Of a stretch of DNA of 64,000 nt, positions 10,761 through 56,630 are shown in pieces. The position numbers and the translations under genes were made by a program. Numbering within the stretch: position 1 is the first letter of the stretch; each line of letters begins with the position of its first letter. Source of the DNA: Minutocellus sp. GHC0000111 (taxonomy: Eukaryota); NCBI GenBank assembly GCA_977018835.1, contig OZ361261.1, positions 1,364,001-1,428,000 on the forward strand. The letters run 5' to 3'. The notes beneath the pieces were generated by a model. That model searched no databases. It saw nothing but the letters and a program-made list of their open reading frames with translations, and was not told where the DNA came from.

Positions 10761-10831
10761 TTATATGTAATTTTTAATTATTTAGTATCAGCTTTTCATA
10801 GTGCGCTTTATATCTTATCAATAGCTTAGCA

Positions 10832-14911: not shown

Positions 14912-17519
14912 CACAGCCAACCGGATGACTCGCATACTTTTGGTCGCACTTTCGGTGGCCGGCCGGCGCGCGAAGCAACCGACCGGCGCGCCCAACGCGA
15001 GCCACCATGGCGGCAAAAATTCAAATTGCCGCCGCTACGTGCAGAACGAAGGCGATATCTCGCGCTGGTGTGGGAGAATTACGGCACGAGACCAACCAGG
15101 TGCTCCCGACATCCTGGTGATATTCCCGTTGGTCTCGATCCACAACTCTCCATGAGCAAAAAAAATAACCGCCGCAATCCCGCGGTCAACACCGCAGACA
15201 GAGTTGCGGTGCAGGACGCCCTGGCTGAACTGCTCGTCCGTCTTCGCAGAAAGGAACTTCATTACTACAATTTCATCGGCAACAACAACGACTCCTTGAT
15301 GAATGTGTTGGGATGCAGTCCCATCATGTACGGCGCCGTCATGTGCACTGCGGGCATCTTGGGTTTGAAGAAGAAGAAACACGAAGACTGCGATGTGTTT
15401 TTTGTGAGGACAGACAACCAGAATGGATGGGATGAAATGGCATCAAGACACTGCCTTGCCGACGACGTTCAGCGAACCCCATACAAAAAGAGCATGTTTG
15501 TTCGCCTCGGTTCCATCAATCCTCGTGCAGCCGACGCTCTCCATGATGATGGATGGATGGCTTTCGACATGGTCACGGTCGAGCAACAATTTCGCCTCGA
15601 AGTGCCGCCGCCGCGGCTCAATTTGACGAAGGCATGCAATGCATTCCTCAAGTCGGTCGCACCACATGTGTCGGTGGGATGTGCGGCGATGGACTACGAA
15701 ATCAACAGGCAGATGTTGCTCGAGGCCCAGAAGTTCCCTGGTGGGTGTGATGGCCAGGAGGACGATGGGTGGGACAATGACGACGATGTTGGGACGGTGG
15801 GCACCCTGACCACGACGGAGGCCGGCGAGATCAGTGAGGACGATGACGACGAAGACGAGGACCATGTGCCCTGTTGTGAGGACGAAGCTGACATTGCAAG
15901 AGAGGACGCTGCACATGAAGCATGCATGCAGCAGCAGCAGCACTTTGAGAAGAGTCGTCAGAAGCACGGTGATGGCGAGGCAGAGATGGGAGCTGTCGAT
16001 GATGCCGAGGATGACGATGCCCCTCACTTCCATTTCCTGAAAAAGGCCGGCGTTGAGGCGGCCGACTCAGGTAAAATAAGGGCAGTGCTGGCAGAATGCT
16101 GGAGAGCTTTATCTATTAACATTTCTGATGTGGCAACAACAAGAAGAAACCAAGGACAACAGAGTTCATCCACCATAACACCTCCACCAAAGGAACTCTC
16201 CTAGAGCACAATCGCGAGGAAGATGGCATGACGGATGACGACATCAAAGAGCTCTGCAAAGCTTGCTCTAATTTGCTCCACACTCTTGACGCAATGTGTT
16301 CCAGGTTTCTGAAATGGTACATGAAATGGGATGATGAGGCAAAGAAGGCTGTGAGAGAGCTTGAAGCATTGATTGCAAGTGCCCTCAAGCAAGCACGGGC
16401 AATCGGCATTAGCACATGACGCCCAAGTGGCACTTACTCGAAGATCACATCTTGGACCAACACATTTGGCTAGTGAAGAGTGGATGGGGCGGCATCTATT
16501 GGCTCGACGAATCGTTTGTAGAGCGAGCCCACCAAGAGGGCGTTAAGGAAGATCGTCGGACTCAGGGCGTCAAGGGACATGAGGCCCAACAGACGGCGCA
16601 GTTCAAGGCTGAGGAGAGGGCATCCAATCCAAAGGTCGGGGAGAGGCGGGAGCGAAACTCTCGGGTGGCAAGAACAAGGAAAAGGACAAGGACCGAAGCT
16701 GTTAAAGCAGAAACTGATGACAAGCGCCAACAAGTGATCATGATGGCCACCGATGGAGATGAGGATGTAGAGATGGGAGCAGGGCATGTGTAAAATTAGA
16801 AAATGAAATTACACTGCTGCTACACAATGACAAATGAATTGCATGATCATCCAACTTTTACAAACAGTGTCGCGATTGAGCAAAAAAGTAAACAGCACAC
16901 CCAAACAAACACATCACGTCCTTCTTAACTCACCCATTTGTCTCCCAGACCAAAAAGTCCCTTTGTCGGGTTGATTGTTGCATAAACTTATCCCAACACT
17001 ATCTGTCTCTCCTCGGGCGCAAAATTGTTGTCGGAATTCCGGGAGGTCGAGTGGGGATGCGATCGGTCGGGATCAGCGAGAGTCGGTCATGCGGGGGGTG
17101 CGGCGCAATCCCGGCAGTTTATCATCAACAACAACGTGGGAAAGTACCAGAGGGTCTGGGGCATCACAACGGGAGCACGACGAGCACAAAGACGGAGCAA
17201 TGGCACCACCCCAGAGAAACGAACGAACGGCCGACAGATGGAGGAAAAGCAGGCCGATGGTTCGTGGCGTTGATGCGCAGCGGAGGCCAATCTGAGGATG
17301 CAGCAAGCTTCAACTATATCCAAACATGATAATGAATGCGTATTTGGTACGAAAATATAGTTATACGCCGGCGCAACGCCGACGGACCACCATGGTGTTG
17401 GACGGTCAAAGAATGGGTGACGAACGAGATTGGGTTTTGGTGGGTTTCTTCGTGAAGTGTTCGTCTTCTGCCGAAAAACGCTTCATCCGACCGGCGAAAC
17501 AAGACGAGATGGGGCTGTG
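14912..17519 (+). mobile_element. Non-autonomous Transib/RAG1-like DNA transposon, copy 1
   Basis: Termini CACAGCC...GGCTGTG; 5-bp TSD ACTCC (14907-14911 / 17520-17524); collinear with copy 2 at 51474-54833. Confidence 0.85.
15152..16793 (+). pseudogene. Frameshifted, internally deleted transposase of copy 1
   Basis: C-terminal TPKWHLLEDH...GGIYWLDESFVERAHQ fits the HxxxxH...G...ExxxE motif of Transib/RAG1/Chapaev transposases. No recognisable N-terminal DD region. Confidence 0.7.
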
Positions 17520-18130
17520 ACTCCTGACTACTCCCCTTTTTTGGAGGTGCGAAGAAAACGGGGAAAATCCAAAAGCGTACAGTATTCAGTTATTTCGTTA
17601 AAAATGCAACCTCCTTCCTCTTGCTTCCTCGAGATGAAAACCACTAGAGGGGGACTACCCGGTTTTATTAGACTTTTGACTTTTATTTATAGTGGGAAAT
17701 TAAATACCGATTTTGCAGGAAAACACTTTGATTTTTGGGGCGATTTCGCATATTATTCGGTAAACCGAACCAACGCAACCAGGACCGCGAGCACGAACAA
17801 AACTTGCTTGTTTGCCTTGAACTCGACGTTGCATTGAGCATCTCGTTGCCGCGACTGCTCAAAAGGCAACCCGTGCCAATCTCTTCCCTTTAAGAAAGGC
17901 AACTTCTCTCCTGGCGTGTCTCCATCTTTTAACACTTTTGGGCCGGTCTTTCACCTTGACCCAATCTCTCAGATTCGATTCTGTCGAGAGAATTTTCACG
18001 TGAAGTGCGTGCACCTTGCATCAGAATCTTTGGTGGTGGCATTCTGTCTCTCGGCCAGATCTGCATCTACCTCCACCTGGATTGAAGACCATTCTTTATA
18101 CTTAATATTGCCAAACGCTGACGACACACA

Positions 18131-20260
18131 ATGCCAGACTCTACTGGCTCGCCCCAGCAAGAGGAGAAAGATGGCACATCATCGGGCGACAAAGATACGA
18201 GTACGTCATCGCCGAACAATCAGGCACCAGAACTAGAGGCAAATGCAGAGCAGGGCAGTCCTTCCACGGTCGACATGAGCACCATTGCCAATGATGACGA
18301 TGACGACGATGCAATCAATGGCAACTCAGATAACAGCAATGCCTGCCCATCACCGGAGCGCATCATCCCCGCCCAGCCCACGCAGCCACCCGACAGTCCC
18401 AACCTGGGCGCCAATCCGGACGAGACAGACACGCTCCATTCCATCATGTTCAATCAAGACGGCGGATGTTTGTCGGTGGGTACCGGGCGGGGATTTCGAG
18501 TTTGCAACGTGTGGCCGTTCAATGAGACCTTTCGAAGAGAATTCGGTGCCAACATCCAGCTTGGAGGTGGAGGTGGTGAGGATGGCACCGATGGGTCGGA
18601 CGATGCTAATGGCGCCGGGGGCAATGATGGAGGTGGTCAAAATGGAAACGGATCAGGTTTGGACGGGTCAGGCAGTGGAGGAGGGGGCGGCGGAGTTGGA
18701 CTGTGCTCAATGCTCTACCGGACCAATCTGCTGGCGCTGACCAGCACGACGCCCCCTCCCATCAATGCGCACAGCCGCGTCACTCATTCGATGCATACGG
18801 CCCATCACACCGCGCACAATGCCGCGACGGCCGGTCAGTTGGCGCAGGTGACGTCTCTGAGCTTCCCGTCCAACAAGGTGTTGATTTATGATGATGCCCT
18901 GTCTCGACCGATCGGTGAATTGTCTTTCCGCCATCGAGTTTTATCAGTGAAGCTGCGACGGGATAGGATTGTGGTCATATTGAGGGATCGCATCTATGTC
19001 TATCGGTTCAGCGATTTGAGTCCGGTAGATTGCGTTGGCACTGGGCGGAATGAGGTAGGACTATGTGCAATTAGCCTGGAGGGTGCCACTGGAACAACCG
19101 GAGGCGGTACCATGAATGCCGGTGCTGGCGGTGGAAGTGGTGATGGGGATAATGCAGTCATGGTGTTGGCCTGCCCAGGAGTCGTTACCGGCCAAGTGCG
19201 GTTAGAGTTGTATGGTTTGAGAAAGACCTCGGTACGTTCGCGCTATGTGGTCGATGGTATGGTTATATCATTTCTTTATCTTTCCTAATATTCCATCAGC
19301 TCACCTTCTAACCACGTTTCCTCTTCCCCAATCTATCTTCCAGCTCATCAATGCTCATGAATCACCATTGGCGGCTCTTCAAGTTACAAATGATGGTACT
19401 CTGCTCGTCACAGCAAGCGAACGGGGTACCGTTCTGCGTCTCTTCGAGACTGGCCTCGTAAAGCGCGGCCACGGAGTTGGCGGGTCAAGAGATGCTACCG
19501 AGGACACAACCGGTAAACCGATCCGAGAATTCCGACGCGGAGTGGAGCGTGCGACTGTGACTGTCTCTCCTTCAGCCTTGACAATTCCTGGGTGGCTTGT
19601 GCCAGCGACCATGGAACCGTCCATGTTTTCCGGTGCTGGGAGAACGAAAACGCGGAAAGCACTCCTGCTTCCTTTGCGTCCTCAAAAAAGAAGAATTCTA
19701 CAAATCCAGTAAAGCTTTTGTCCAAGGTGCGTTCAACGACGAAGAAGTATTTCATGTCAGAAGAAGGATCGGTAGCGCATGTTCGCGGAATACCGCACCC
19801 TCATGCATGCGCCTTTGTTCCAGACCGAGAGCGAACGGTTGCAGTCGCAGGAACGGATGAGCTTGGAAATGGATGCCTTCTGGTCGCCGAATTCGCTACG
19901 AAAGGCAGTCTCGACTCGGAGGAGATGATTAGGCAGCAGCTTTTGGACGGTCAGAGTGGAACGGAAGTCAATAAGAGCGGCAAAGTGAGGAGGTTGGGAT
20001 ATCACCGCTTCTTTCGGAAAACGTCAATTGCCCATCATATTCCAAGCAGCCAAAGAAGACAGCAAATGCAACAAAATGGCCAGAATGGTGCTTACTATGA
20101 CGAATTACGTGTGGGGGATGCCCCGCCCAAAGGCGAGAGCAACATTGATTCGGTTGCCCGGAAACTTGACGACGTCATCTTCAGCGACGAAGGTGGCGGC
20201 GACGATGGTTTTGATCTTGTAGATGTAGCGCGACAAATTAAGCTCCGTGAAAAATTATAG
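18131..20260 (+). CDS. ATG18: PROPPIN / ATG18-WIPI family WD40 autophagy protein (intron ~19232-19343; frameshift ~19560)
   Basis: FNQDGGC, MLYRTNLLAL, INAHES, TASERGTVLRLF, EFRRG lipid-binding motif and ASDHGTVHVF. Confidence 0.9.
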
Positions 20261-20406
20261 CATCGACTTGACTTACTTTAGCTACTAGTACCTAGCTAGT
20301 CAACATCAATTGACGAATTCATCCAAAAACTCACAGCTTCTCTGGATTATCTCTTGCAGTAGTCACATAGCCAACCATTAACCTATCGTTTCATCTTTAC
20401 CTGAAA

Positions 20407-23400
20407 CTACGCCTGCTTTACTTTCCTCGGACTCAATCTACTGCTAGAAATGAGTGATGGATTCTTTCGAACAAGCTCCTCGATGAGAGGCCTCGCATAA
20501 TCATACCCTCTTTGGACAATTTCGTCGAATTTGTCATATTCGAGTGTGCCGAAGTCTTGAAGGTGGGCGCAAGTGAAGGTCGGCGACGGTTTCCATTCGT
20601 CGTCTATGCTGATCCGACGAGACCCATCGCAAGGCATCTTGAATGTCACCCATCGAAGGCACATTAACGGTCTTTGAGGAAGGGTTCAATGAGTTCCAGA
20701 GCAACCACCAGCCAGACAAGTAGGTGCCATACTCGTAGTAATCCTTTTGACTCTCGGCTGAGACGTCCACCGAGATCACTGTTCTGGCCCCGGCCTGCTC
20801 TTTCATGACATCGCTGGGTATGACGGACATGTAGCCGCCGTCTGCAAGTAGGGATCCGTTTTCACTAATGGGAGGAAGATATCCGGTTAGTGACATGGAA
20901 GCCCTCACGTACTTCCACAGAATGCCCTTGGTATGGATCATTAATTCACATCGTTGAATGTCGGTAGAGACACAAAAGAACTTGAGAACGAGATCTTGTA
21001 TTCTCGTTGAGCTTCCGAGGCTTTTCATGATTTGTCGGTTGAATCGATAGCCTGAAAACATGGAAGTTAGAGGCAGAGTTAAGTCCAGTATCTTCTCAAT
21101 GGGTGAAGCCATTTGAACAGCCATCTCTCGCGACCGTTTCATGAGAAGATCAAAATTATCGGGCCATCTTGCGAAGAGAGCACCAATAAAAGCCCCCTGA
21201 GATGTACCGCCGACCATGTCAATAGTTACACCGGCCTCGAGTAAAGCTTTGATCACGCCGAGATGGGCTAGGCCTCTTGCACCCCCACCTCCAAGAACTA
21301 AACCCACAGATAGTCCAGTCATTCGGCGACAAAGGGGCAAAATATCCTTTTCGTGCGTTGAGAATGGTACTCGAACAAGATGATGACCGACAATCCAGCT
21401 ACGCTCCTCCGACCAGTTGTCAAGAGCATCAGACACGGCGATCTCTGGGCTATTTGCGCTTGCAGAGTCCTCTTGCAACATATTTGTGACCGAGTCCTCA
21501 ACTACAACCACCTCAATTCGAACATGCATTGACTCATATGCCCATTCAAGACATCGCTCGATTTTGTTTGATGCGGGGGCTTCATCGGCCTTCACTAGCA
21601 GTAGAATTGCATCGGCCTGCCCGATGCAAGTTCTTGTCCACCACGTGTAATTTGCATCGGTCTGAAAGACAACAAGTCTATTCTGCTCTTCAACTTCCGC
21701 TAGAAATCGAGTCATTTTCAGTTCATGGACTGCGTTCTGGTGATGGTAAACCTTCTCTCCCAGGTGTTTCCGAGCGAGATGCTTTGTTAGAAGTTTCGTT
21801 GGAGCGATTCGTTGAAGAGAGGACGCCATTGCTGTGCAGAATGCAGATGCATCGATATCAGCGGCCATCGGAACAACTGCAATTGTCGCCAAACTCAACC
21901 CATAGGTAGGCATGATGGACGGCGAAGGCGCCTTGGCACTACTGCCACCCATTCTCAGAGGAGTAACTTTCCTTGGGATGTTTCTGCCACCTCCAAGGAT
22001 GGGGTCATGTCCAGCACCAAAGCGGGATACTTGAGCAGCTATTACACGTGAAAAGTGAAGCCCGGCGCTGGGGTGGGTCCGTATGAGTGCCTCAAGGACC
22101 TTGATTGGTATACTTGCTGTCTCGCTGTTTCGGATGGCGTAAAGCTTGCAGGGCCAGGCCTTTTTTGTAATGCCGGCAATGTCACCCACGCACTTTCCAC
22201 GGCCGAACTCCTCAACTGCATTGCCACTGTGGGAATGATAGCTTGCTCGAAGGCGGCCATTCAAAATCATTATCATTGAGTCACATGCGTCGCCCTTCCT
22301 TGCAATCACCTCACTGGCTTGAACAAATTCCCACTGGCTCGCCCAATTCACCAAATGCACTGACGGGCTCAGGAGACTGAGAATATGTTCAAAGCACGAA
22401 ACCATGGCATTTGAATTTGCAATGATGAGCTCATCAAATACCATCTTTGGGATTCGAAGTAATTTTACCTCCTTGCCGATGGCTTTCGCAGAAAATATAC
22501 TCACATCGCCACTAAAACACGCAAGCCTGCCGATGATTGCCCCCGGGCCTACCTTGGTGAATCTTTGGAACGAGGAGGAAGATTCTCTAGGGATCTCAGA
22601 GCCGATGTCCATCTCGCCATCGAGAATAAAATATAAGGAATGGTGTGGCTCGCCCGTTTTGATGAGAATTTCATCTTTCCCAAGAGTCACAAGTGTTGCA
22701 TGTTGTTGCAAAATTGGGACGCACTCCTTTGGCATCTCCAGCTCTTCGGCGGCAACAGCAGTAGCGTCGCGTATGATCGCAGACATGTCAGGGGTTTTTG
22801 TTCCGCCACCCCCCGTTAAACTGGAAGACAATCGGTACCATTCCTTGGATGACATTCGATTGGCCCATGCGGTTGGTGTTTCAAAATCGGCTCCGCGTCG
22901 AAGTAGTTCTTGCGAAATGCCGAGCGTTTTCACAAGAACTTGTAGTGTCACGCGTTGTACGCGTTGCACAATTGTCACTGCAACTCGGTGCACGTCGGCC
23001 GGAAATGAATCCATTACAACAGAATAACATCTCGCAGGAACTTTGATCAATCGACTGTTTTTGGTTGCAACGGCACTCACACCGCCCGCCATTGATAAGA
23101 CCTGCGGTGCTGCCGGTGCATCGGTATCATCAGCTCTTGCCTGAACTCTTTGGTGCTGAACAAGAGCCTCGAGCATTGCCAATAGCGGTGTAACTACAGT
23201 ACCTGGTCCCGAGGTGAAGCTCAACACTTTTTCTTCATCTGTAGCATCAGCTGCAATGTCTTTTTCGGCTAACGGATAGTCGTGAAAGAAACACTGGATG
23301 CTTCCCGCTAGAACAACGAATAGTGAGCCGTCGAATGAACCTCTCTCAAACAACTCTTGGCCGGGCTCCAGATCAATATACTCCGCTTCGCTCAAACACA

Positions 23401-24250: not shown

Positions 24251-24420
<170 letters not shown>

Positions 24421-27583: not shown

Positions 27584-28925
27584 TTAAACTATGTGCCGAT
27601 CCTGATTCCCTTGATCCTGAACAGTCCATTTCTGCTCCGCAATCAGTGCAAGATCATCTCGATCGAGAGTACCGGATTCATCTCTGTCAAGCTTGGCAAA
27701 CAATTTGCGGATTTCCAAGATGCTTCTCTTGTCTGCTTTCCCCATTGCAAGTAGCATAAAAGATATAAAATCGGCCTCGGACACCTGCCCGTCGCCGTCG
27801 TCATCCATCTCTTCAAGGTCGCTGAGCGCTAGTTCTCTCTCTAGAAACTTCTTTTCTGCCATGCGCGCCTCTCTCTTCAACCGACTTCCTGCAATCTGCC
27901 CCAATATCTGACCAACAACTGCCACCGATGCCGGGATAAATAGCAAAGATAGGAGCCTCATCGACGGCAAAACTGGTGCAACATCACCTATACCAATAGT
28001 GGTGGTTGTGATTACCGCATAGTAAATCGACTTGCCAATTGTCCACCCTTCAAAGTGTCCAATGGTGCATGCAACTATGAAAACAATCAGCAGCAACGGC
28101 ATAACCTTCTTCACAATATTCAATGCATCTTTGAATGTGGCCAAACAACTCGAGTCAGCATTGTCATTCCTCGGTGCCATGCTCAAAGCTCTGTCCACAC
28201 CGGAGTTTGATTCTTCATCCTCGTCATCTTCAACGCCCGAGGCAAAGATGTGAACAAGCCGTCTTTTTGCTTTCTCTCTTCGCGACTCATACGCCCGTTG
28301 CTGCTGCTCCAATATCCGTTGGCCCAGTATACCCAAACCGATTGCAATGATGCAAACCCCGTAAATGGCAAAGAACCCAGTAAATATTTGGCTTGGGGCA
28401 TTTGTAGGAGCAGGGGAACCATATCCAACGGTGGCTATAATATTTGGTACAGTGTGACAGATTCGAATCAATGAAACGAAAGAGTGTGAGATGTGCCAAA
28501 GAAAAGTTGCCAAACATATGGCTGCGGTCAGTATTGTCTACTTAGGATCGAAGCGACCCAAGAATACATGGCATGTACTCACTGAATGTAGTGACGGAGA
28601 AGTAGAGGCTATCAATTATTGACCATTCCTCGAACACGAACGAGTAGGCACAGACTCCAACGTCAAGGTACAGAACAAAGTAGACGAAGCACTCCCTGAA
28701 CGCCAGCGTGGCCGGTTGGAATCCATCCGCAAAGCTTGGCTGCCGCCGGTCATTTGGTGGTGGGTTGGACATTAGTAATGCGGATGGTTGTAGGGATGCG
28801 GACTCTTCGTCGTCGAGGAGTGGCGAAGCGAGGGACATGTGATCATGATCAGTGGCTGCCTCGCCATTCTGCGAGGCGGTGGGGCTCATCATCGCCGACT
28901 CTGGGGACTGCCGCTTCCGTATCAT
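27584..28925 (-). CDS. Two-pore (TPK/KCO-type) potassium channel with C-terminal EF-hands; intron 28582-28435
   Basis: Spliced pore 1 SLYFSVTTFTTVGYG, pore 2 TTIGIGD, EF-hands DDDGDGQVSEADF and DRDESGTLD. Confidence 0.9.
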
Positions 28926-29168
28926 GATTGACTGCGAATGAGGCTGCAGCACGGTGGTTGCTTCCGATGCTCGCAGTGGTTCTTTGTTCTTGACTGAACT
29001 GGCGTGATGTGCTTGTTTACTTAAAATTTCGCCGACGATCACTTCGCCGAGCTGCAGAGAGCGACTGATCCGGGGCCCCTGATCCGATGCGGACCTGCTC
29101 TGCAGACCATGACAGATGCAGGCCAACGACGCTTCTTCTTGCTGCCATTTTATTAGATACCGACCAAC

Positions 29169-30911: not shown

Positions 30912-31002
30912 GGATGATGTAGAGGGAATAACAGCAAGTAAAATCAAAATGTATCGCGATTATTTGACAATATATGTGTATAGTCTGCAAAGAAAGTCTT
31001 CA

Positions 31003-33548: not shown

Positions 33549-33708
33549 TTGCATAGTCAGGCAAATAAATTCAATCATTAGCTAGCAATCGTGCACATAT
33601 ATACTAGTATGTCGTAACAGGCAAAGGACTATTTAAGAAGAGACACGTTGTGCAAATAAATTTGAATCATCATTAGCTAGCTGGTACACTGTCGCTCGTG
33701 CAGACTTT

Positions 33709-40671: not shown

Positions 40672-40912
40672 ACGTTACGTGGGTGGTGTTTGGGACGGAT
40701 GTATTTTTGATAATTCTATTTCTCGTCTATGCAGACCACTAAACTAGCCGGTAGTAGGTCTGCCAATGATGATGAGAGCGTACCTAGACATTAATATGTA
40801 TATATGCATGACAATGTGAAAAACGTTTATGTAGATTCTACTTACATGTAGATTACGAGCCATAAAACAGCCAGCCTGAAATTCATGCAGCCACTTTATT
40901 AATTGTGTTTCA

Positions 40913-42166: not shown

Positions 42167-42499
42167 CGTCGCCGTCGTAAAAAAAATGAGCACATCTTGC
42201 ATGCAATCGAAGGGGCGGACGAGGGACAGACATTCAATTAATTAACGGACAATCAATGTCCTCAATTCATTCAAAGTACATGAAACCTCACTTTGTGGAT
42301 TCGCAAAACCGTCCATTTGCTTCGAGGCGAGCGAGCCGCAACCCGCATCCTTTTTGCTCCACCGCACCAGCACGCACATGCACAACGAACCGTCTGCATC
42401 AATCATTCTCTGCTGGTCGTCATTTTCCGTCCATCCATCCATCGCATCGCATCGCATAATCTGAAGCCAAAGCTCTTTTCGAAAGCTCTTCGGTCTTCC

Positions 42500-42505
42500 A
42501 TGTAG
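42500..42505 (+). promoter_or_regulatory. Minimal AUG-UAG uORF in the putative AdoMetDC 5' leader
   Basis: ATGTAG located 45 nt upstream of the spliced uORF start; inclusion in the transcript is inferred. Confidence 0.45.
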
Positions 42506-42549
42506 TCAGTTGTCGATCGCATCATCAGGTGAAGGCCAACCCAGCTTGC

Positions 42550-43130
42550 ATGCCGGTAAGTCATCATCGGTCTACTCCGAGCTGGGCCTATTTCGCGGAC
42601 GGACAGGGCCTGAATGTTCGTCACTGGTGCATGCGTTGAATTGTTCGGGTGAAGAGTCAAGTCATGTTGGCTTGATAGACGGAGGAGCATGTCGGTCTGC
42701 GTCATGAATCTCCGAGAGGCGCGCGGGACGCATGCATGACATCTCTGCAATGCAATCGGCAATACTGGCACAAGAGCGATTGGCTACCGTCAATTAATGC
42801 TTTCAAGGTTGTTGAATTGGAACCGTTCAATCGGTGGCTTGGAATGTATTGGTCGTATTGACGGCACATGTCAACCTCCTTGCCTCGCTTCTGTGGCCGC
42901 ATGAGTGTCGTGTCTACTTCTTTCTCTTCTTTTGACCCGATGCAATCAAATTCAATGCAATTGATGCATCAATATTGACCCATCTATCTCCAACCCCATC
43001 ACAACAATCATTTCCCATAACAAATTGCACCAATGGAAAACACACAATAATAATACAGGCCGCTTCAAAGATCGTATTCACCATCCCCATCCTCCTGGCG
43101 GCCCCACCTGCCAACACTTACCCCTCCTGA
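42550..43130 (+). promoter_or_regulatory. Spliced uORF MPAASKIVFTIPILLAAPPANTYPS* (intron 42556-43058) upstream of AdoMetDC
   Basis: ATG CCG|GTAAGT donor and TACAG|GCC acceptor join in phase 0; ends CCC TCC TGA (43122-43130), 95 nt before the main AUG. Confidence 0.7.
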
Positions 43131-43225
43131 CAGCGGCTAATACCCCCACAGCCAACAATAGTACAATAATTCAACCATCACTTCAAATCTCATCGCATCA
43201 CATTGCCAATCACCACACAATCAAA

Positions 43226-44827
43226 ATGAGCGCCAACAACAAAGACGATGGAAGAGAGGAGGAGCTCCTTCGCTGCAGCGTCAATTCCGACTACATCTAC
43301 GAGCCCACCGGCCCGACCGATGGGGGTGAGAATCCCGAACTCAGCATCATTGACGCGGTCATCCCCGAGCATGCCCCGGCCGTCGAGGAGCCCCATCCCG
43401 AGTTGGACGGTGGACTGAGCAACCCCCCTACCGACTACAACGCCGACTACCAGCCTCAGCAGGCACCGGTCGATTCCGATGCGTCCGGTGGATCATCCGA
43501 CTCGGTATCGCACGATCCCAGCAGCAGTGGAGCCTTGGATGACGATGAACATTCGGGGGAGATTCGAGAGTACACCGGCGTGTTCGAGGGTCCCGAGAAG
43601 ACTTTGGAGGTGGTCTTCCGACGCGTCACGGATACCGAGGAAGAGCAGCCCCAGCTGGCGCAGCAGGCCATCGCTCAGGCGGCCGGTCCGGGCCAGGAGA
43701 TCCAGCGCATCGGCCTCCGTCGTCTCGCCAGAGCCGATCTGGACCGCATCTGCGCCCGGGCTCGGTGCACCATTCTGTCGTGCGTGAGCAACCAGTATCT
43801 CGATGCCTACGTCCTGTCGGAGAGCTCGCTGTTCGTCTATCCCTACATGCTGGTCCTCAAGACGTGCGGTACGACCACCCTCCTCCGTTGTCTGGCCGTC
43901 CTCATTGAGCTTGGCCGTCGACTTCGTCTGGAGTTGGATTGGGTGGGATACAGCCGCAAGAATTTCAACTTCCCTGGCGATCAGGCCTTTCCCCACCAGT
44001 CCTTCCATCAGGAACTGGATTACCTGTACAGCCACCGCAATCTCTGTGAGCGTCTGGATGGCAATGGATACCCTCTCGGACCCGTCACCGATGACCACTG
44101 GTTCGTCTTCGTGGCCGATCAGACCATCCGCAGCCGAAACAATGACACTCTCGATACTGACCGCGTTCTCAACATTATGATGTTTGACATTGATGAGTCT
44201 GTGGCCGAGATCTTCTACTACGATGCCTACGAGAAGAAGGCCCGGCCAGATGAAACCGAGGACGAGGCCGTGAAGCGCATTTCCGTGGCCCAGACCAAGG
44301 CGGCGGGCATCGACGCCTTGTGCCCCGGCAGCATCATCGACCCCCGTGCCTTTGAACCCTGCGGATACAGTATGAATGCCATCCTGTTCCGGTCCTACTG
44401 CACCATGCACATCACTCCCGAGAGCGGATCGTCCTACGCCAGTTTCGAGACCAACCAAAAGGTTAGCTCGTACACCTCCCTCATAAACAACGTCGTTCGA
44501 GCCTTTAAGCCCCGCCGTTTTGTCCTTACTCTTATGGCAGACGAGGCTGGCTTGGCCCAGATGCGGGACAATCCGCTTGCTGGATCTGCCGCGGCTGCCA
44601 AGATTGCCGTCCAAACCGCCCCCGTCCCATCGGGTGGGAAGGACAGGCCACCAATGTCGCCGGATGCGGATGCCTCGCCGGCCAAGAAGATGGTGTACAA
44701 GCGCACCAACCTGGCTTCTATTCATGTGGAAGATGACCAGGCCTGCATGATGGGCAACTGGGTACTTCATGAGGAGGAAGAATCGGGCGTCCCTGAGCCC
44801 CGACTCCGTGGCATGTCCGTGAGCTGA
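43226..44827 (+). CDS. SAMDC: S-adenosylmethionine decarboxylase proenzyme (AdoMetDC/SAMDC)
   Basis: FEGPEKTLE, YVLSE/SSLFV autocleavage site, KTCGTT, FEPCGYSMN and HITPE..SYASFET. Confidence 0.97.
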   Translation: MSANNKDDGREEELLRCSVNSDYIYEPTGPTDGGENPELSIIDAVIPEHAPAVEEPHPELDGGLSNPPTDYNADYQPQQAPVDSDASGGSSDSVSHDPSSSGALDDDEHSGEIREYTGVFEGPEKTLEVVFRRVTDTEEEQPQLAQQAIAQAAGPGQEIQRIGLRRLARADLDRICARARCTILSCVSNQYLDAYVLSESSLFVYPYMLVLKTCGTTTLLRCLAVLIELGRRLRLELDWVGYSRKNFNFPGDQAFPHQSFHQELDYLYSHRNLCERLDGNGYPLGPVTDDHWFVFVADQTIRSRNNDTLDTDRVLNIMMFDIDESVAEIFYYDAYEKKARPDETEDEAVKRISVAQTKAAGIDALCPGSIIDPRAFEPCGYSMNAILFRSYCTMHITPESGSSYASFETNQKVSSYTSLINNVVRAFKPRRFVLTLMADEAGLAQMRDNPLAGSAAAAKIAVQTAPVPSGGKDRPPMSPDADASPAKKMVYKRTNLASIHVEDDQACMMGNWVLHEEEESGVPEPRLRGMSVS

Positions 44828-45127
44828 GAGCCTGAGGAGCCCAATGGTGCGGTCGGTAGTTGTCATACTGTCTAGAACTGCTGTAGGATTCCTACCGGTA
44901 CATGTATGCAGAGTCTCTAGATCGGCAAGGGAGCCTATGTAGGAATCCTACCTATTACATATTGTAGAGAAAGCATTATACATATCAAAAGCATCTATCT
45001 ATGAAAAGCACAATCGCAAATAGACTGTTTCGTAAAAAGGCATTTTCGACCATACAGCGCCTGTTTCATTTTTTTTTAACATATTTTGTGATTTATTTAT
45101 TCATTAGGGCACTGATTCCGATGCGAT

Positions 45128-46306
45128 CTATACTATGTCTCCTGGCCCGTTGGGTTCGTTGGATAATTCCTCCATCGCCGTTGTAAAGAGAGTTTTGCTT
45201 GTGTTGTGCTTTCCGTCAATGAGCTTTTCTTCCAACACATGGCATTGAGCTCGGTGCACCTTGAACGAAACCAAAAGACAAAAAGTGGCCACAAATAATG
45301 GTACAAAGACGATGACCGCATCGCCAGGATAACTAAATGCCCAGGCACAGAAACCAACCCCAAGCAGTATAAGGAACAACAACAGCACCATGTCTTCCAG
45401 CGCCACCGAGGAGGAATATTGTACTTCTTCAAAGATCATACCAGATCTTGGCTTCCCCTCCAAGCACACGAGCTTTACCAAGTCGCCGGGCGTCGTATTC
45501 ATAAATCTCTTCTTGCTGACATTTTCCAGCTTTTTAATGGTGAATTCGGTGCCGTGCCCTGCTGGTGAAATATCGGCCGCCGCCGCCGTGGCGCCCATTG
45601 GTGCCTCGTAGCACACAAACAAATTGAAAGGTGCGACCGGCCAGGATTGGTATACCTCCGCGACCGGCATAACCCCCGAATGGAACGCAAGAAAATCCGC
45701 ATCTGAAGCGCGAAACTCCCAGATACTTTTAGATTCCTTCTTAATCACAGTGCCAGTGCATGTGCATGCGGGCCTAGCTTCCGACGCAGCGTTAAGGGTG
45801 CATTTCAATAATTTCCGCGATAAGCGTGAGAACAGACGCCTTCGCAGAGCAGCGCGGGTGAAGTAGTATGTCCCTGCCGATATGATGAGGCAGCCTAATA
45901 TCAGGATAGGAACGGGGGTGCCGTCTGTGTACGGATTCGGGGCATTTTTGCTATTTGCATTACCGTTGGATGTTCCGAAGAAATCTTTGCCCGGTGCATT
46001 GTTATTGGAGATGTTTGTGCTTTTGTCCTTGTGTTTGTGGTGGTGAGGTGTCGTTGTGCTTGTGTCGAGCCACTCGGTGACGTTGGTGGAATTTGCATTG
46101 ACATCTTGGCTAGTGCCGTATTTGCAAAAGAAACCGATGCACTTGCTATCAGGCTCCGAAACTTCCATTCGTCGCCAACGAAGCTTTTGTTCATGCGCAT
46201 ATGTGTCATCTTTCTCATCTTTCTCGCTTTCCAAGTGCGACCCGGCCGCATTCACTAAAGTGTATCTTGTATGTAATGCAATAATACCATTGTTTGACAA
46301 TGCCAT
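45128..46306 (-). CDS. Hypothetical membrane protein (3 TM)
   Basis: 392-aa ORF with hydrophobic helices; no family recognised. Confidence 0.5.
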   Translation of the reverse strand: MALSNNGIIALHTRYTLVNAAGSHLESEKDEKDDTYAHEQKLRWRRMEVSEPDSKCIGFFCKYGTSQDVNANSTNVTEWLDTSTTTPHHHKHKDKSTNISNNNAPGKDFFGTSNGNANSKNAPNPYTDGTPVPILILGCLIISAGTYYFTRAALRRRLFSRLSRKLLKCTLNAASEARPACTCTGTVIKKESKSIWEFRASDADFLAFHSGVMPVAEVYQSWPVAPFNLFVCYEAPMGATAAAADISPAGHGTEFTIKKLENVSKKRFMNTTPGDLVKLVCLEGKPRSGMIFEEVQYSSSVALEDMVLLLFLILLGVGFCAWAFSYPGDAVIVFVPLFVATFCLLVSFKVHRAQCHVLEEKLIDGKHNTSKTLFTTAMEELSNEPNGPGDIV

Positions 46307-46742
46307 ATCGTCGTGGGGGGTGGATTATTACTAAGCGCTATCTTTTGTTGGTAATTCTATCAACTAACTGGTCGTGCAAGGGTTCTCCCAGGTGATGAAG
46401 TTGTTTGATGATTGCTCATTCGATGATTCATTCTGGCGGGTCTGCCGCCTACGCACGCGCGCAAGGATCGGGCGGGAACAGTGTGTGTTGTTTCTTTCGT
46501 TATGATGCGTCGCTGACGCAATGCCGCGTCATTGCCACTTGAAGTTGAGAATTGCCCGCACAGGCATCTTATTTGTTTTGTGGCGAGTCATTTTCACCAG
46601 CCACACATATCCCGCTTTTTGCCTCGCGGTCGCCTGAGAAACTGCAATGAGAGCAATCCATTGCCACTCTGCCTTCCGGTCAGCTCTCAAACCCCTCACC
46701 ATCTCGCAGACAAGCCCTTCCGCCGTTGACACCTTGGCCATC

Positions 46743-48167
46743 ATGCAATCCGGCGCTCGAGACAACGCCGTGTCTTCCATTAGTATGCGTTCGCTGCCCC
46801 CCACGACCGCCGCTGCCGCTGCCGCCGCCACCACGGCTTCGTCGAAACCAGCCGTCTATGCCAAAATGACCCACTCCTCCTCACAAACTTTGTGCGGCGT
46901 GCCCACCACCTTCTCTGCTCCGGTCAAGAAAGGAACGGTTCGGTTCAACTCCTCTATACGCATCCGTCCCATCCCGAGTCTTTCGTTCGTGTCCGACGAA
47001 GAGAAGAGGGAGATTTGGTATTATGTAAGTACGCCACAGTTGGCTCGGTGGTTAGGCCGGCCGAAACCGTGTAGGCTTTAAATGTCTTGTGTACTTTGCA
47101 ATGAAAATAATACAGCACAACTAACAAACTCCATATCTTCAAACTTTCCCTTTCGTCCACTTGGCTCATTCCCCATCGAGCAGGAGGACGAAATATCTGG
47201 CTTCAAGGAGACCATCCGCCTAGATGTGCGGCACATGCGTCAGCAGATACGCCAGACCGAGCTGGCTCCGGAGCACATAAATGACACCAACGACCGGTGC
47301 TGCCGGGGCATCGAGCACTTTGCGACGCGAGATTCGCTTATGCGTCAGGAGACGGCCAAGACGGCACTGATCGAGTCCGTCCTTCGAGAGCAGGCGCATC
47401 TGTCAGCCACGATGCCGTCCGTTGATACATGTGATGGAGATTCTTCAAAACCATCTACCGTCAGGACCGACGCCATCGCTCAGGCCGTATGTGACGTTTC
47501 GACGAGGATGTCCCTTGAGGCTCGGTCCAGAGCCGCGACGTTTGGTGCATCCGACCGAGCATTTATCGCCGCGGAGGAGGCGGGCCTTCGTGCACTGCTG
47601 GCCTCGCACAATTTGGCCAGCCCCACTGCCCAAACGGTCATGTACCATGCACCGACAAGAGGGTATGCCCGTTCCGCCTCTTCGATTCAGCCAACGATTA
47701 CTGCCGGCACAGTGGAGCGTTCATTGCCATCGTCCTGTCTAAAGCGCTCGGCGTGCTCGGTCCCGAACATAATGAATTATGCCAGTCCTGGCCCGTCGAC
47801 ATCCTCCGCCATGTTCCAAGCCTACGAGCAGGTTGCCACACACCGCCGGAGAAGGCTGAGCCTTTTGCGAGAGAGTCTATTGGCGAGCATGAACATTTCA
47901 GATAGCAACATAACGCAGGATTTGCAGAATCATCATCATCAACAACAAAAAAACATCGACCATGAGTGGGCGCCGGTATCTTGCATTTTGTACATAACAC
48001 TTTTTGTATTCAACCTCTCGAATGAGGCACACATAACGCATAACAATATGATTTTTTATCACATGTTAGTTCTCCTTCTACTAAGTTACACCGGTCTATC
48101 GCTGTGCATCCAAATACACTTTTGGAAGACAGCACTGCTCACGTGCACGGTTCCTTGGCCGAATTGA
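46743..48167 (+). CDS. Hypothetical protein of the VRF...WY...RG(L/I)E type (intron ~47025-47181; 3' end uncertain)
   Basis: VRFNSSIRIRPI..SDEEKREIWYY|GTAAGT, then CCRGIEH...VLREQ. Confidence 0.55.
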
Positions 48168-51473: not shown

Positions 51474-54400
51474 CACAGCACCATCTGCCAGCCGGATGAC
51501 TCGCATGCTTTTGGTCGCACTTTCGGTGGCCGGCCGGCGCGCGAAGCAACCGACCGGCGCGCCCAACGCGAGCCACCATGGCGGCGGCAAAAAATCAAAT
51601 TGCCGCCGCTACGTGCAGAACGAAGGCGATGTCTCGCGCTGGTGTGGGAGAATTACGGCACGAGAACAACCAGGCACTCCCGACATCCTGGTGACACTCC
51701 CGTTGGCCTCGATCCACAGCTCTCCATGAGCAAAAAAAATGACGGCCGCAATCCCGCGGTCAACACCGCAGACAGAATTGCGGTGCAGGACGCCCTGGCT
51801 GAACTGCTCGTCTGTCTTCGCAGAAAGGAACTTCATCACTGCAACTTCATCGGCAACAACAACGACTCCTTGATGAGTGTGTTGGGATGCAGTCCCATCA
51901 TGTGCGGCGCCGTCATGTGCACTGCGGGCATCTTGGGTTTGAAGAAGAAGAAACACGAAGACTGCGATGTGTTTTTTGTGAGGACAGACAACCAGAATGG
52001 ATGGGATGAAATGGCATCAAGACGCTGCCTTGCCGACGACGTTCAGCGAACCCCATGCAAAAAGAGCATGTTTGTTCGCCTCGGTTCTATCAATCCTCGT
52101 GCAGCCGACGCTCTCCATGATGATGGATGGATGGCTTTCGACATGGTCACGGTCGAGCAAAACAATTTCGCCTCGAAGTGCCGCCGCCGCGGCTCAATTT
52201 GACGAAGGCATGCGATGCACTCCTCAAGTCAGTCGGTCGCACCACATGTGTCGGTGGGACATGCGGCGATGGACTACGAAATCAACAGGCAGATGTTGCT
52301 CGAGGCCCAGAAGTTCCCTGGTGGGCATAATGGCCAGGACGATGGGTGGGACAATGACGACGATGTTGGGACGGTGGGCACCGAGTTGGTCCCATTTTAG
52401 GTGAGGCACTTCAGGACATTGGAGATTTTGCTAACTTCGCTCGCGTTGTCGGACGACGGAAAGACCGACGTCCGTCCATTTTTTTCGAAGCTCATCATGG
52501 TGACCCCCGCTCCTGGCCGCTACACATTTGCAAGGTAAGATATGGGCATTCCCGAGGCTGGCCGATACCATTGTGCTACGCATGCGAAAGTTTCAGCTTG
52601 ATTGGCATGCTATTGTATGAGAAAATATAAATCAAAACAATCAACCTGTGTTCGAGTACGCGAAAAAGGGCCGCGGATGAGAAGTGATACCGTGAGAGCC
52701 ACAGCCGCCCAATCCACCCAGAAATGCAGAGACACACGCCCAAGATATGTATGAAAATGTTTGTATGGTTGATTGTTGTGGTTTTTGTTCGTATCCGCCC
52801 CCGAATCGGCCGCCAATGAGAGCAAATTTTCGTGCGTCGTCATCGTTTTTTGTGCGTGATTTTTCCCCCTCGATAGCTCAGCCTGTGTGCGGAATTTTCG
52901 AGCCGGACCTTCGATGTCCCCAACCTTGAATGTGTCTAGAGTGGGGACGTAAGCGAGGCAGGCCGGCTCGATCAAGTCTTTTTGCCATATTTCAGGGGGA
53001 AAAGTTGGTCCGGCAGGAAATTGCGACTTTTCCCGTACTTCGCCGCGTTGGAAACACGGACGACGGAAAGACGAATGTCCAGTTTTTGGGTCGAGCGGCT
53101 CACCTAAAGCTGCTGGACCAACTCCACCCTGACCACGACGGAGGCCGGCGAGATCAGTGAGGACGATGACGACGAAGACGAGGACTATGTGCCCTGTTAT
53201 GAGGACGAAGCTGATATTGCAAGAGAGGACGCTACACATGAAGCATACATGCAGCAGTGCTTTGAGAAGAGTCGTCAGAAGCACGGTGATGGCGAGCCAG
53301 AGATGGGAGCTGTCGATGATGCCGAGGATGACGATGCCCCTCACTTCCATTTCCTGAAAAAGGCCGGCATTGAGGCGGCCGACTCAGGTAAAATAAGGGC
53401 AGTGCTGGCAGAATGCTGGAGAGCTTTATCTATTAATATTTCTGATGATGGCAACAACAAGAAGAAACCAAGGACAACAGAGGCTCTCATCCACCATGAC
53501 ACCTCCACCAAAGGAACTCTCCTAGAGCACAATCGCGAGGAAGATGGCATGACGGATGACGACATCAAAGAGCTCTGCAAAGCTTGCTCTAATTTGCTCC
53601 ACACTCTTGACGCAACATATTCCAGGTTTCTGAAATGGTGCATGAAATGGGATGATGAGGCAAAGAAGGCTGTGAGAGAGCTTGAAGCATTGATTGCAAG
53701 TGCCCTCAAGCAAGCCCGGGCAATCGGTGTTAGCATAACGCCCAAGTGGCACTTACTCGAAGATCACATCTTGGACCAACACATTTGGCTAGTGAAGAAT
53801 GGATGGGGCGGCATCTATTGGCTCGACGAATCATTTGTAGAGCGAGCCCACCAAGAGGGCGTTAAGGAAGATCGTCGGACTCAGGGCGTCAAGGGACATG
53901 AGGCCCAACAGACGGCGCAGTTCAAGGCTGAGGAGAGGGCATCCAATCCAAAGGTCGAGGAGAGGCGGGAGCGAAACTCTCGGGTGGCAAGAACAAGGAA
54001 AAGGACAAGGACCGAAGCTGTTAAAGCAGAAACTGATGACAAGCGCCAACAAATGATCATGATGGCCACCGATGGAGATGAGGATGTAGAGATGGGAGCA
54101 GGGCACGCACAAAATTAGAAAATGAAATTGCACCACTGCTACACAATAACAAATGAATTGCATAATCCAACTTTTACAAACAGCATCGCGATTGAGCAAA
54201 AAAGTAAACAGTGCACCCAAACAAACACATCACGTCCTTCTTAACTCACCCATTTGTCTCCCAGACCAAAAAGTCCCTTTGGCGGGTTGATTGTTGCATA
54301 AACTTATCCCAATGCTATCTGTCTCTCCTCGGGCGCAAAGTTGTTGTCGGAATTCCGGGAGAGGTCGAGTGGGGATGCGATCGGTCGGGATCAGCGAGAG

Positions 54401-54833
54401 TCGGTCATGCGGGGGGTGCGGCGCAATCCCGGCAGTTTGTCATCAACAACAACGTGGGAAAGCACCAGAGGGTCTGGGGCATCACAACGGGAGCACGACG
54501 AGCACAAAGACGGAGCAATGGTGCCACCCCAGAGAAACGAACGGCCGACAGATGGAGGAAAAGTGGGCCGATGGTTCGTGGCGTTGACACGCAGCGGAGG
54601 CCAATCTGAGGATGCAGCAAGCTTCAACTGTGTCCAAACATGATGATGAATGCGTGTTTGGTGCGAAAACATAGTTGTGCGCCGGCGCAACGCCGACGGA
54701 ACACCATGGTGTTGGACGGTCAAAGAATGGGTGACGAACGAGATTGGGTTTTGGTGGGTTTCTTCGTGACGTGTTCGTCTTCTGCCGAAAAACGCTTCAT
54801 CCGACCGGCGAAACAAGACGAGATGGGGCTGTG
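51474..54833 (+). mobile_element. Non-autonomous Transib/RAG1-like DNA transposon, copy 2 (carries a nested element)
   Basis: TIR CACAGCACCATCT / AGATGGGGCTGTG (12 of 13 match); flanks GAGA (51470-51473) and GAGAA (54834-54838); collinear with copy 1; ORF 53189-54118 carries the ITPKWH...ESFVE motif. Confidence 0.85.
52383..53124. mobile_element. 742-bp non-autonomous TIR element (Sola-like: GAG...CTC termini, 4-bp TSD) nested in copy 2
   Basis: Absent from copy 1, where the empty site reads gggCACCctg; TSD CACC at 52379-52382 and 53125-53128; TIR GAGTTGGTCC..TTTAGGTGAG. Confidence 0.85.
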
Positions 54834-54968
54834 GAGAATGACACACTGCGCAAGCAATCCGACCTCATTTACTTTTGGCCCATTCGTTCACGCACTCTTT
54901 CTGGTGGCCGCATCGCCAGCAACAGTGCTTTGTCCTGCTCACAGATCCCGCAAACAGCTCCAACGATC

Positions 54969-55418
54969 ATGTCCGTTCTCACTCGAGAGGACATTGAAGC
55001 GACGACGAGCATTTTGGCCGACATTGAACATGTCGATAGGGAGATCGAGGCGACGATTCGAAGAACACGAGAACTCAAGAAGAATCGTCGGTCGCTGACG
55101 GAGGAGTTGGAAGAGTTGCACACACAACAACAACAACAGGAGGAGGAGGGAGAAGTCGAAACATCATCGCCGCCGACCCCAACCTCACAAAATAAATGTG
55201 GCGGTGCTACCAGAAGTGCGCGACAAGTCTCCGAAGAGCCAAAATTGTCGAAAGAGACCGCATCGTTGAGTGCATGTGCCGGTAAGAAGGAGGAGGAAAC
55301 ATCGCCTCGAATCAGCCTGCTCGCCCTGCGCTCACAAGACGACACGGAAGGCGATGGACTAGTGCAAAATCAAGTTCGCTCTCGCGTTGCACAGGACTCG
55401 AAAATCTCCTCCCGATGA
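54969..55418 (+). pseudogene. Paralog/fragment of the C-terminal part of the 56844-58267 gene, with the stop codon lost
   Basis: DREIEATIRRTRELKKNR...EGDGLVQNQVRSRVAQ vs DKEIEATMRKLRELQENR...EGDGLVQNQVQPRVA*. Confidence 0.7.
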
Positions 55419-55800
55419 CGCTGTGCCGCCTTCTCCCGCTCGGCCTCCTCGAACTCCTCCCGCATTTTCAGCAGCTGCTCCCCGGTCGGTTCTCCGGGAC
55501 AAGCCTCGATGGCGTCGGTGCAGGAGTCGTGGGCGTCGAGACAGTCCCCCGCCTTGAAGGAGGCGTTGCCCTCCGCCTTGGACGCCTCCGACTTGGCAAG
55601 GGGGTCGGGAGGTCCGTCGGCATCGGCGGCTTCGACGGCTGCGGCATCGGCTTCGGTCGTGGAGGAATCGGCAGCAGCGGTCGTCGCGTGCGGCTCGTCT
55701 CGTGCCGCAACGGTAGCCCCACCTCCGAGCTCGCAAATTGCGTCGGCGTTGCTGTCGCCGCTGCTTTTCACACCGTCATCGCCGAGTGCGTCGAGGTCAA
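55400..55800 (-). pseudogene. Captured fragment of a TPR (TTC1-like) gene, hypermutated
   Basis: KAEGNASFKAGDCLDAHDSCTDAIEACP is a TPR helix pair with C/H at positions where Tyr is typical; truncated after the first repeat. Confidence 0.7.
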
Positions 55801-55940
55801 ACCCCTCCGAGGAGAAGTTGGTGGCTTGCCGGGCGGTCAGGGGGGGGGGCAGTGATGCAGCGAAATAATGAGCACATTCATGCAAGCCGTAGCAGGAACC
55901 TAGGCCTAGCCGGCATGGCATCGGCGCAGGCGCTGACCTG

Positions 55941-56630
55941 CCGGCAGCCTCCACGCGGAACAGGCTATTCCGGGTGTTTTCTTCGGAAATCATATCAGGC
56001 CTCAGAAATTGCAAAATCGCGAAATGTCACAAACTCGGATGGGCTGGGGTAATCCCGTGTCTCGTCGTTGTTGCAATTGTCGCCGGTGAAGTCACCGAGA
56101 GTGGAAAACGCGAAACTGCACACAGTCAAGCACACAAGCAAAAATCTCCAACGCAACATGAGCACATGCATGAGGACACATGTGCGAGGTGCGGCGCACG
56201 CAAAACTGACGGGCGGTTTTTTCGCTTTTGTTTTTCAGGCCGCCTAGGACACACAAAAGCTCGATCGTCGGACGCGACGAGAAAAAGGCAGGTGAGTGAT
56301 GAGAAGAAAGACGAGAATGACCCATCTTTCGACGGACTGAAAGATGTCGATAGTTTTGCGTCCTCTGAAGCTAAGCTGACGGAAGGCGTGATTTTTTGGT
56401 CCCGACCGTCCGTCAGTTTTGCGTGCGACGGACCCTCGCAGGACTTGCTGACTTTGTTGAGCAAGCCGGCTCCTCCACGCGGAACGTGATGTTCACGGGT
56501 GTTTTCTTCAGAAATCAGAAATCGCAAAATGTCACAAAACTCGGGTGGGCTGGGGTAATCCCGTGTCTCGTTTCGTCGCGATTATCGCCGGTGAAGTGAG
56601 AGAGTGGAAAACGCGAACCTGCACAGAGGC
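55941..56630 (+). repeat. Imperfect ~170-190-bp direct repeat (55941-56125 and 56466-56628), probable transposon subterminal remnants
   Basis: Shared cctccacgcggaac...gggtgttttcttc...aatgtcacaaa...gggctggggtaatcccgtgtctcgt...cgccggtgaagt..gagagtggaaaacgcgaa. Confidence 0.85.

Follow-up and report, generated by a model that had tools for sequence, protein, structure and literature searches.

Evidence for repeat-restricted TpA to TpG/CpA hypermutation in a RAG1/Transib-like transposon family of a diatom

We analyse a window of 64,000 nucleotides from the diatom Minutocellus sp. (contig OZ361261.1), gene-dense eukaryotic DNA of 53% GC, in which self-BLAST and alignment find two copies of a DNA transposon that differ mainly where one copy reads TA and the other TG or CA. 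Copy 1 is internally deleted and lies at 14912-17519 on the forward strand. Copy 2, on the same strand, spans 51474-54833 and is divided into a 5' part (51474-52382) and a 3' part (53125-54833) by a nested miniature inverted-repeat transposable element (MITE) of 742 bp at 52383-53124. The first-pass annotation had described two copies within 14912-56630; there are indeed two, but the second ends at 54833 and includes the MITE, and the stretch that follows (54839-56630) is a separate segment. With the MITE set aside, the copies are 96.6% identical over 2586 aligned columns. We are close to certain that their differences reflect a real, polarised hypermutation of TpA that is restricted to repeats.

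The limits of copy 1 are set by self-BLAST, alignment, its ends, its target-site duplication (TSD) and contigs that carry the empty site. The element ends are CACAG...CTGTG, with CACAG at both ends of both copies, and in Transib/RAG1-like transposons the CAC start of the terminal inverted repeats (TIRs) is a heptamer-like end. The left TIR of copy 1 is 9 nt shorter than the family form; copy 2 has the full left TIR, CACAGCACCATCT, which recurs in loose contig ends of other sequencing runs. Copy 1 is flanked by the 5-bp TSD ACTCC (14907-14911 and 17520-17524), whereas the flanks of copy 2 (AGAGA/GAGAA) match over 4 bp only. A transposase remnant on the forward strand of copy 1 (14849-16790) consists of an N-terminal open reading frame (ORF) at 14849-16204 and a frameshifted C-terminal part, and the 3' part of copy 2 holds an ORF (53108-54118) with the motifs PKWHLLEDH and ESFVERAH whose stop codon TAA is lost via TA>CA. 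Both copies are without roughly 570 central residues found in three database proteins (P0001, P0005 and P0008; 920-1097 aa, 95-97% identical). The predicted structure of P0001 (pLDDT 86) matches RAG1 in Foldseek with E 1.4e-12 and HzTransib with E 1.5e-4, and a protein atlas places the transposase core near RAG1 clusters (0.93); with P0008, a PDB sequence search gave no match and a Pfam search no meaningful one. Judged by this model, the element is a RAG1/Transib-like cut-and-paste transposon. It shares with the known members of that group (PMC1131882) the RAG1-like fold, DDE-type motifs, CAC ends and, in copy 1, the 5-bp TSD, and it departs from them in the absence of a sequence-level Pfam or PDB match, in the 4-bp flank match of copy 2, and in a longer protein with a long helical insertion. 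This large family without a Pfam match counts 623 representatives at E<=0.001 and has the motif TPKxHxxxxH...ExxxExxHQ. A literature search for Transib in diatoms found nothing on the transposase family. Looking for the DNA of further copies in metagenome contigs, we obtained 12 pattern matches but, with P0008, no relative, and 0 matches to a 29-nt pattern; viral contigs gave none.

Across the whole element, 89 of the aligned columns are mismatched, corresponding to 75 events. TA faces TG or CA in 33 of these and TG faces CA in a further 14 doublets, such that TA-type changes make up 47 of the 75 events and 47 of the 66 transitions; the rest are 6 events of CG against TG or CA, 13 other transitions and 9 transversions. 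The dinucleotides common to both copies include 27 TA and 169 CG. The pattern is most striking at 17311-17370 versus 54625-54684, where 52 of 60 columns are identical and the 8 differences are 7 TA>TG and 1 TA>CA: copy 1 keeps 9 TA (17316-17365), of which copy 2 has lost 8 (54630-54679), exactly as first reported. The polarity is opposite at 15749-16418, where TA is retained in copy 2 and most of these sites are TG or CA, the derived state, in copy 1. The flip originally noticed at 15857-15945 versus 53180-53262 is found again, with CA or TG in copy 1 at 15863, 15876, 15892, 15911 and 15924 where copy 2 has TA, and additionally one TG/CA doublet; the sites singled out earlier as reading TG in one copy and CA in the other are at 15680 and 15941. 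Tracts of one polarity exceed expectation, with 24 same-copy neighbours versus 17.3 expected (p 0.007).

The observed/expected ratio of TpA, a check that had been proposed, is 0.35 in copy 1 and 0.12 and 0.36 in the two parts of copy 2 (the 5' part has only 5 TA in 909 bp), versus 0.59 in the rest of the window, while that of CpG is 0.86-1.06. Single-copy and intergenic DNA is thus richer in TA than the element, but it is not TA-rich in absolute terms, as had been stated. Rates of A>G by context, likewise suggested as a check, differ about 25-fold between TA, with 61 hits in 148 copy-sites (0.41), and AA/AG (0.017). The AA/AG class nevertheless ranks second with 11 events, and GA/GG is the rarest class of transition (2 events at 366 shared sites). 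Rare polarised amino-acid variants include 14 A>G changes outside TA (AA 7, CA 5, GA 2) and 10 C>T changes, 6 at CpG and 4 elsewhere. The faint excess of A>G outside TA fits an imperfectly specific A>G activity, and ordinary CpG decay is present as a background.

Independent evidence comes from contigs of other sequencing runs, labelled as sponge or marine metagenome or as a coded organism, that we align to the window (runs X15-X20, with a share <0.2, are left out). Both alleles occur at the same sites in contigs of four runs, which come from three studies and include an Illumina RNA library, and 28 of the 38 listed rows inside the element (40 of 67 rows are listed, from four runs) concern TA/TG/CA dinucleotides. 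The TA-type variants are therefore not an artefact of the assembly of this window, and the earlier claim that they are real holds. In run X1 a 3-kb stretch of copy 1 attracts 4924 contigs versus 84 on 19.9 kb of genes, and the summed depth is about 10,000-21,000 on the element versus about 15 in its flanks; these numbers, though no copy count, show that the transposon family is very abundant. In runs X2 and X5 one contig bypasses copy 1, which shows that this insertion is not fixed and makes a recent origin likely. These empty-site contigs (14910/17528) skip 2617 nt, equal to the element, one TSD and 4 nt, and the 4 extra nt may be an excision footprint or a local allele. RNA contigs of run X7 span parts of the element, although such contigs may be DNA. 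The derived alleles of copy 1 are common to a large part of the depth of the family, which means that the hits need not postdate insertion; the idea that each copy was hit after it inserted is not supported on this account, and the tracts may partly reflect exchange among copies.

Which state is ancestral is answered by five lines that agree: TA is, and the change runs TA>TG/CA, on both strands as the first-pass annotation had it. The doublets are informative, as 6 single CG changes among 175 CG sites predict 0.03 TG/CA doublets from a CG origin where 14 are observed. For 6 paired sites followed in 3 runs, summing the share of first-base C and that of second-base G never gives more than 1.00 (18 of 18 cases; 34 of 40 listed rows used, with 4 mainly RNA-run rows and 2 flank rows omitted), which is what the absence of CG would give. 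Among 36 close protein sequences, of which 4 are window frames and 3 are database fragments identical to a window copy over the overlap, Cys and His occur together at 13 columns, 0 of which have Arg. Database proteins from other contigs repeat the mix of Tyr, Cys and His at the same columns, and Tyr is found in outgroup transposases at column 19 (7 of 9), column 41 (8 of 10) and column 46 (5 of 10), as is Ile at column 154 (6 of 10). A further line is that the repeats are short of RTAY (R, purine; Y, pyrimidine) but not of YTAR. Two CG states are seen at likely former TA sites, 15638 and 16787.

The remaining line of evidence comes from a host gene. The segment at 54839-56630 is depleted of TA, with 1 RTAY in 1792 bp versus 648 in 56237 bp of the rest, and is likely a mobile element, probably of pack type, with gene fragments. 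On its reverse strand, at 55403-55840, lies a truncated duplicate of the conserved host TPR gene P0165 (363 aa), corresponding to residues 1-146 with 94% identity. All 3 Tyr of the duplicate have become Cys (codons at 55735, 55543 and 55522), while all 8 intact homologues, the parent among them, have Tyr at the same 3 positions; the parent is known here from its protein, and selection on it may hide hits. Because the ancestor of this duplicate is an intact host gene, it serves as a control of polarity that is independent of the transposon. The segment also contains a coiled-coil ORF (54969-55415), two diverged direct repeats at 55940-56125 and 56465-56628 (165-190 bp, 77% identical) and a 247-bp MITE with 30-nt TIRs (56188-56434), and the gene caller has made a 207-aa protein, P0164, from the TPR duplicate.

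For comparison we use the single-copy gene region at 28000-47900, whose differences between samples show no TA-type excess. TA-type changes are 2 of 40 listed differences (of 175) there and 47 of 75 in the element (Fisher p 5e-10), which speaks against the same signature in single-copy genes. In run X1 the ratio of transitions to transversions is 52:4 on the element stretch versus 51:44 in single-copy DNA. The density of RTAY is 7.9-16.8 per kb in 18 ORFs, and it is 4.6, 1.5 and 0.6 per kb in the repeats versus 11.5 outside, while YTAR is not depleted (3.5, 3.4 and 2.8 versus 4.5 per kb). Other runs have long loose ends in this control region at 31597, 34652, 39940 and 40808-40844, which suggests further polymorphic insertions or a short repeat.

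The bases around TA strongly influence whether it is hit. Counted per duplex site, hits fall on 39 of 54 RTAY, on 21 of 74 mixed sites and on 0 of 18 YTAR. On the mutated strand RTAR (11 of 74) is hit about as often as YTAY (10 of 74), so that a purine on the 5' side counts like a pyrimidine on the 3' side and the rule is palindromic rather than 'TAY'. A purine two bases 5' of TA may make a small difference (38 of 164 versus 22 of 128), and the flank three bases from TA has no effect on hits. Ordered by the 5' base, A>G hits follow T > A > C > G; TAG is least hit (4 of 46), and three YTACG sites are kept. Proximity to CG does not distinguish hit from kept sites (median 8 versus 12 nt, p 0.29), nor does local GC (p 0.94). 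Strand-coordinated clusters, looked for among the hits, are absent (p 0.58 and 0.75), and the interleaving of the strands excludes editing of one RNA strand.

Now we consider what places a sequence within reach of the process. The nested MITE, unclassified, with TIR GAGTTGGTCC and the 4-bp TSD CACC, is not depleted of TA and has 12 RTAY in 742 bp versus 4 in 2614 bp of the surrounding copy (p 1e-5); its retention of RTAY fits a later arrival. The 250 bp on either side of copy 1 contain RTAY, as does the DNA to the right of 56630, so that flanks there show no depletion; to the left of copy 2, 324 bp with a single RTAY are too short a stretch for a judgement. As the TPR duplicate lies in a depleted segment and its parent keeps Tyr, host-derived sequence appears to be hit once it is in such a place. 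Targeting by chromatin or location is probably the better account than RIP-like pairing. The first-pass claim that duplicated DNA is targeted thus survives as a restriction to mobile or duplicated sequence, but duplication itself need not be the trigger: the TPR parent keeps its Tyr and the nested MITE its RTAY, and in Bigelowiella natans (see the preprint discussed below) the target is single-copy. When all codons are tested exhaustively, TA>TG/CA creates no stop and often removes one, and full-length family members have intact catalytic motifs but show His, Thr or Cys in place of the Tyr or Ile of their relatives. In a family this abundant and mobile, a defence is plausible but would be leaky, and the suggested role as a genome defence is not borne out by a very abundant, insertion-polymorphic family and a change that never creates a stop.

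The likeliest mechanism, to which we give about an even chance, is adenine deamination in duplex DNA targeted by chromatin. Under this mechanism, the activity would be recruited by silenced chromatin, probably methylated at CG, in which the element and its neighbours lie, and a putative host enzyme would deaminate the adenine of TpA in duplex DNA. The resulting inosine would be replicated as G, giving TG on one strand or CA if the opposite strand is hit. Hits would accumulate a few at a time through many generations and would be inherited and reshuffled as mutated copies transpose. The damage would be limited to missense changes (Tyr to Cys or His; Ile to Thr, Met or Val) and loss of stops, which would make any defence slow and leaky. 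Near-pure transitions (only 1 transversion is seen at TA sites, at 16848 next to an indel) and the sharp context point to base chemistry. A precedent exists in the de novo TpA>TpG/CpA changes reported from mutation-accumulation lines of B. natans (bioRxiv 10.64898/2026.01.13.699255), and the reported methylation of diatom transposons (PMC9998398) agrees with the 6 of 10 rare C>T changes at CpG here. More specifically, and tentatively, with appreciably less than an even chance of being right, the activity may be a natural diatom base editor that reads palindromic RTAY in silenced duplex chromatin and converts A:T to G:C in transposon or host copy alike, lies outside the ADAR and TadA specificities, is shared with Rhizaria, and represents an old counterpart of RIP with opposite chemistry across SAR (stramenopiles, alveolates and Rhizaria).

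Several points weigh against this interpretation. TpA is self-complementary, and A>G is therefore inseparable from T>C on the other strand. ADAR prefers UAG and TadA/ADAT2 prefers ACG (PMC10661471), which the context here fits poorly, and the B. natans preprint reports TpA only, with no shadow elsewhere, and names ADAT2 as candidate. A derived state that is identical in both copies is invisible to the pairwise count, and contig depths are biased weights rather than copy counts. Outgroup columns 20 (Tyr 4, His 4) and 941 (His 17, Tyr 12) are ambiguous, and many others are too diverged to inform.

Since TpA is a palindrome, the lesion could equally be on T with the same outcome, through repeat-targeted thymine oxidation (TET/JBP-type) or alkylation (by DNMT4, for example) with T>C being fixed. 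A preference as symmetric as that for RTAY would be natural for an enzyme that reads duplex DNA, repeats of dinoflagellates are rich in 5-hydroxymethyluracil (5hmU), which takes the place of T preferentially in TA and TC (PMC11572971), and the RID-related DNMT4 proteins of diatoms have no function assigned (PMC9998398); but a TA/TC rule is contradicted by the rarity of TC>CC, seen as GA/GG (2 of 366), T>C mutagenesis by 5hmU is not reported in the accessible part of PMC11572971, and DNMT4, which has no known tie to thymine, is absent from P. tricornutum (PMC9998398). On balance we consider a marked T unlikely. Error-prone synthesis provides another route to A>G that needs no new enzyme. Polymerase eta (Pol eta) favours a WA motif (W, A or T), with roughly a two-fold preference of TA over AA, and the second rank of AA/AG (11 events; 7 of the 14 rare A>G variants) matches this motif. 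A Pol eta-like activity in the replication or repair of repeat heterochromatin, possibly engaged by mismatch repair at deaminated 5-methylcytosine, would insert dGTP opposite T. Pol eta produces A>G in this way and is more used in late-replicating heterochromatin (PMC13716900). The roughly 25-fold excess of TA over AA is far beyond that preference, however, and the single transversion at TA sites, the absence of strand-coordinated clusters and the lack of an effect of CG distance (p 0.29) also argue against it, making this explanation slightly less likely than a marked T.

Another explanation combines an ordinary mutation spectrum with GC-biased gene conversion or recombination between the hundreds of copies, or with selection against TpA in the element. 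It would draw on the tracts of shared state and on derived alleles common to copies, to which exchange or inheritance contributes, and the CG states at 15638 and 16787 could be recombinants. But a conversion bias is not dinucleotide-specific and cannot yield 0.41 versus 0.017, nor 39 of 54 RTAY versus 0 of 18 YTAR, and the TPR duplicate was hit without having any transposon function to select on; we consider this account very improbable. Decay of an ancestral CG or CA/TG by cytosine deamination (CpG decay with RIP-like CA>TA, leaving TA as the end product) is less probable still. CpG decay does occur (6 CG events; 6 of 10 rare C>T at CpG), and diatoms methylate transposons and carry RID-like DNMT4 (PMC9998398), yet the shared CG (169), a CpG ratio of about 1, 14 doublets against 0.03 expected, Arg in 0 of 13 columns, TpA depleted rather than enriched, Tyr>Cys in the TPR duplicate with an intact parent, and full-length ORFs of 1089 and 1097 aa without RIP-type stops all oppose it. 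In substance a CG or CA ancestor is refuted by relatives that hold Tyr or Ile at the affected codons. The least credible alternative, by our estimate nearly negligible, is an artefact of sequencing or assembly at modified bases: our evidence does come from contigs of other runs and not from raw reads of this window, but both alleles are found in four runs of three studies, one of them Illumina RNA, and database proteins show the same columns. Fungal RIP was rejected for its reversed direction, TpA being depleted here, and ADAR/ADAT editing of an RNA stage for the interleaved strands, the low count at TAG (4 of 46) and hits that do not follow the UAG and ACG hot spots.

A comparison with known systems shows that the signature as such is not undescribed, as the first-pass annotation had assumed. 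In B. natans (Mettrop et al., bioRxiv 10.64898/2026.01.13.699255), TpA hypermutation affects integrated DNA of nucleocytoplasmic large DNA viruses and virophages, with a de novo rate raised about 1000-fold and active in some lines only. In both organisms TpA>TpG/CpA occurs on both strands of silent, non-host DNA, and TpA is depleted while CpA/TpG are gained; the authors of the preprint expect transposons to be targeted too and suggest that an adenosine deaminase is responsible. Unlike that rhizarian with its single-copy viral inserts, we deal with a diatom, a stramenopile, and with a multicopy DNA transposon and a host-gene duplicate; the loss of TA has reached about half of the sites here, AA and CA show a faint shadow of A>G, and RTAY is preferred over YTAR, a point on which the main text of the preprint contains neither 'context' nor 'flanking'. 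The diatom process works, by analogy, like that of B. natans, and the two may possibly have a common enzyme. A literature search, with subscription papers mostly outside its coverage, found no report of TpA hypermutation in diatoms, and the accessible part of PMC11884799 has no mention of TpA that we found.

Repeat-induced point mutation (RIP) consists of C>T at CpA, enriches TA, creates many stops and mutates both partners of a duplication. Like fungal RIP (RID/DNMT4), the present process leaves dense, context-specific transitions on both strands of repeats and spares single-copy genes; unlike RIP, with its CpA>TpA changes, TA-rich products and many stops, it removes TA and makes no stops, and where RIP hits both duplicates, the parent TPR gene keeps three Tyr, although selection could hide hits. 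The relation between RID and DNMT4 is given in PMC9998398. With ADAR, TadA and ADAT2-3 (PMC10661471) it shares A>G and the preference for a 5' U or T, and its 5' order resembles that of ADAR, but those enzymes act on RNA (or, when engineered, on single-stranded DNA) in a strand-oriented way, whereas here a DNA transposon is hit on both strands without coordination. The WA>WG changes of Pol eta share A>G, TA above AA and a bias to heterochromatin (PMC13716900), with much lower TA specificity and more transversions than we see.

What is new here is a half-saturated stage with CG intact, a control of polarity by a host gene, and signs that any defence is leaky; because CG has survived at this intermediate stage, the TA process can be told apart from methyl-CpG decay. 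To our knowledge, no natural enzyme is established as a routine adenine editor of genomic DNA. The RTAY rule is a fingerprint for candidate enzymes, and a strong footprint in a culturable group makes the hunt practical; a duplex-DNA A>G editor, if it exists, would be a new tool. For diatom genome evolution, it means that the GC content of repeats rises over time and their Tyr codons disappear while no stops arise, so that dead transposases look open and annotators may call them genes, and that transposon ages based on divergence would be inflated. As the family stays abundant and mobile, 'defence' should not be assumed.

The window has a few further features. Its S-adenosylmethionine (SAM) decarboxylase is nearest to a cluster made up mainly of Bacillariophyta (score 0.97) and so points, as a single gene, to a diatom host. 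An RNA contig of run X6 skips 503 nt with GT..AG ends at 42554-43058, upstream of the frame of this enzyme, likely an intron in the 5' leader, and relatives of the enzyme carry the AdoMetDC leader peptide family. CXXC zinc fingers bind unmethylated CpG; the forward-strand ORF at 60145-61251 has a weak match to this domain (E 0.0012), with no apparent link to the TpA finding. Finally, between a patatin-like gene and the next ORF, the stretch at 24253-24420 holds two 66-nt direct repeats that are 97% identical.

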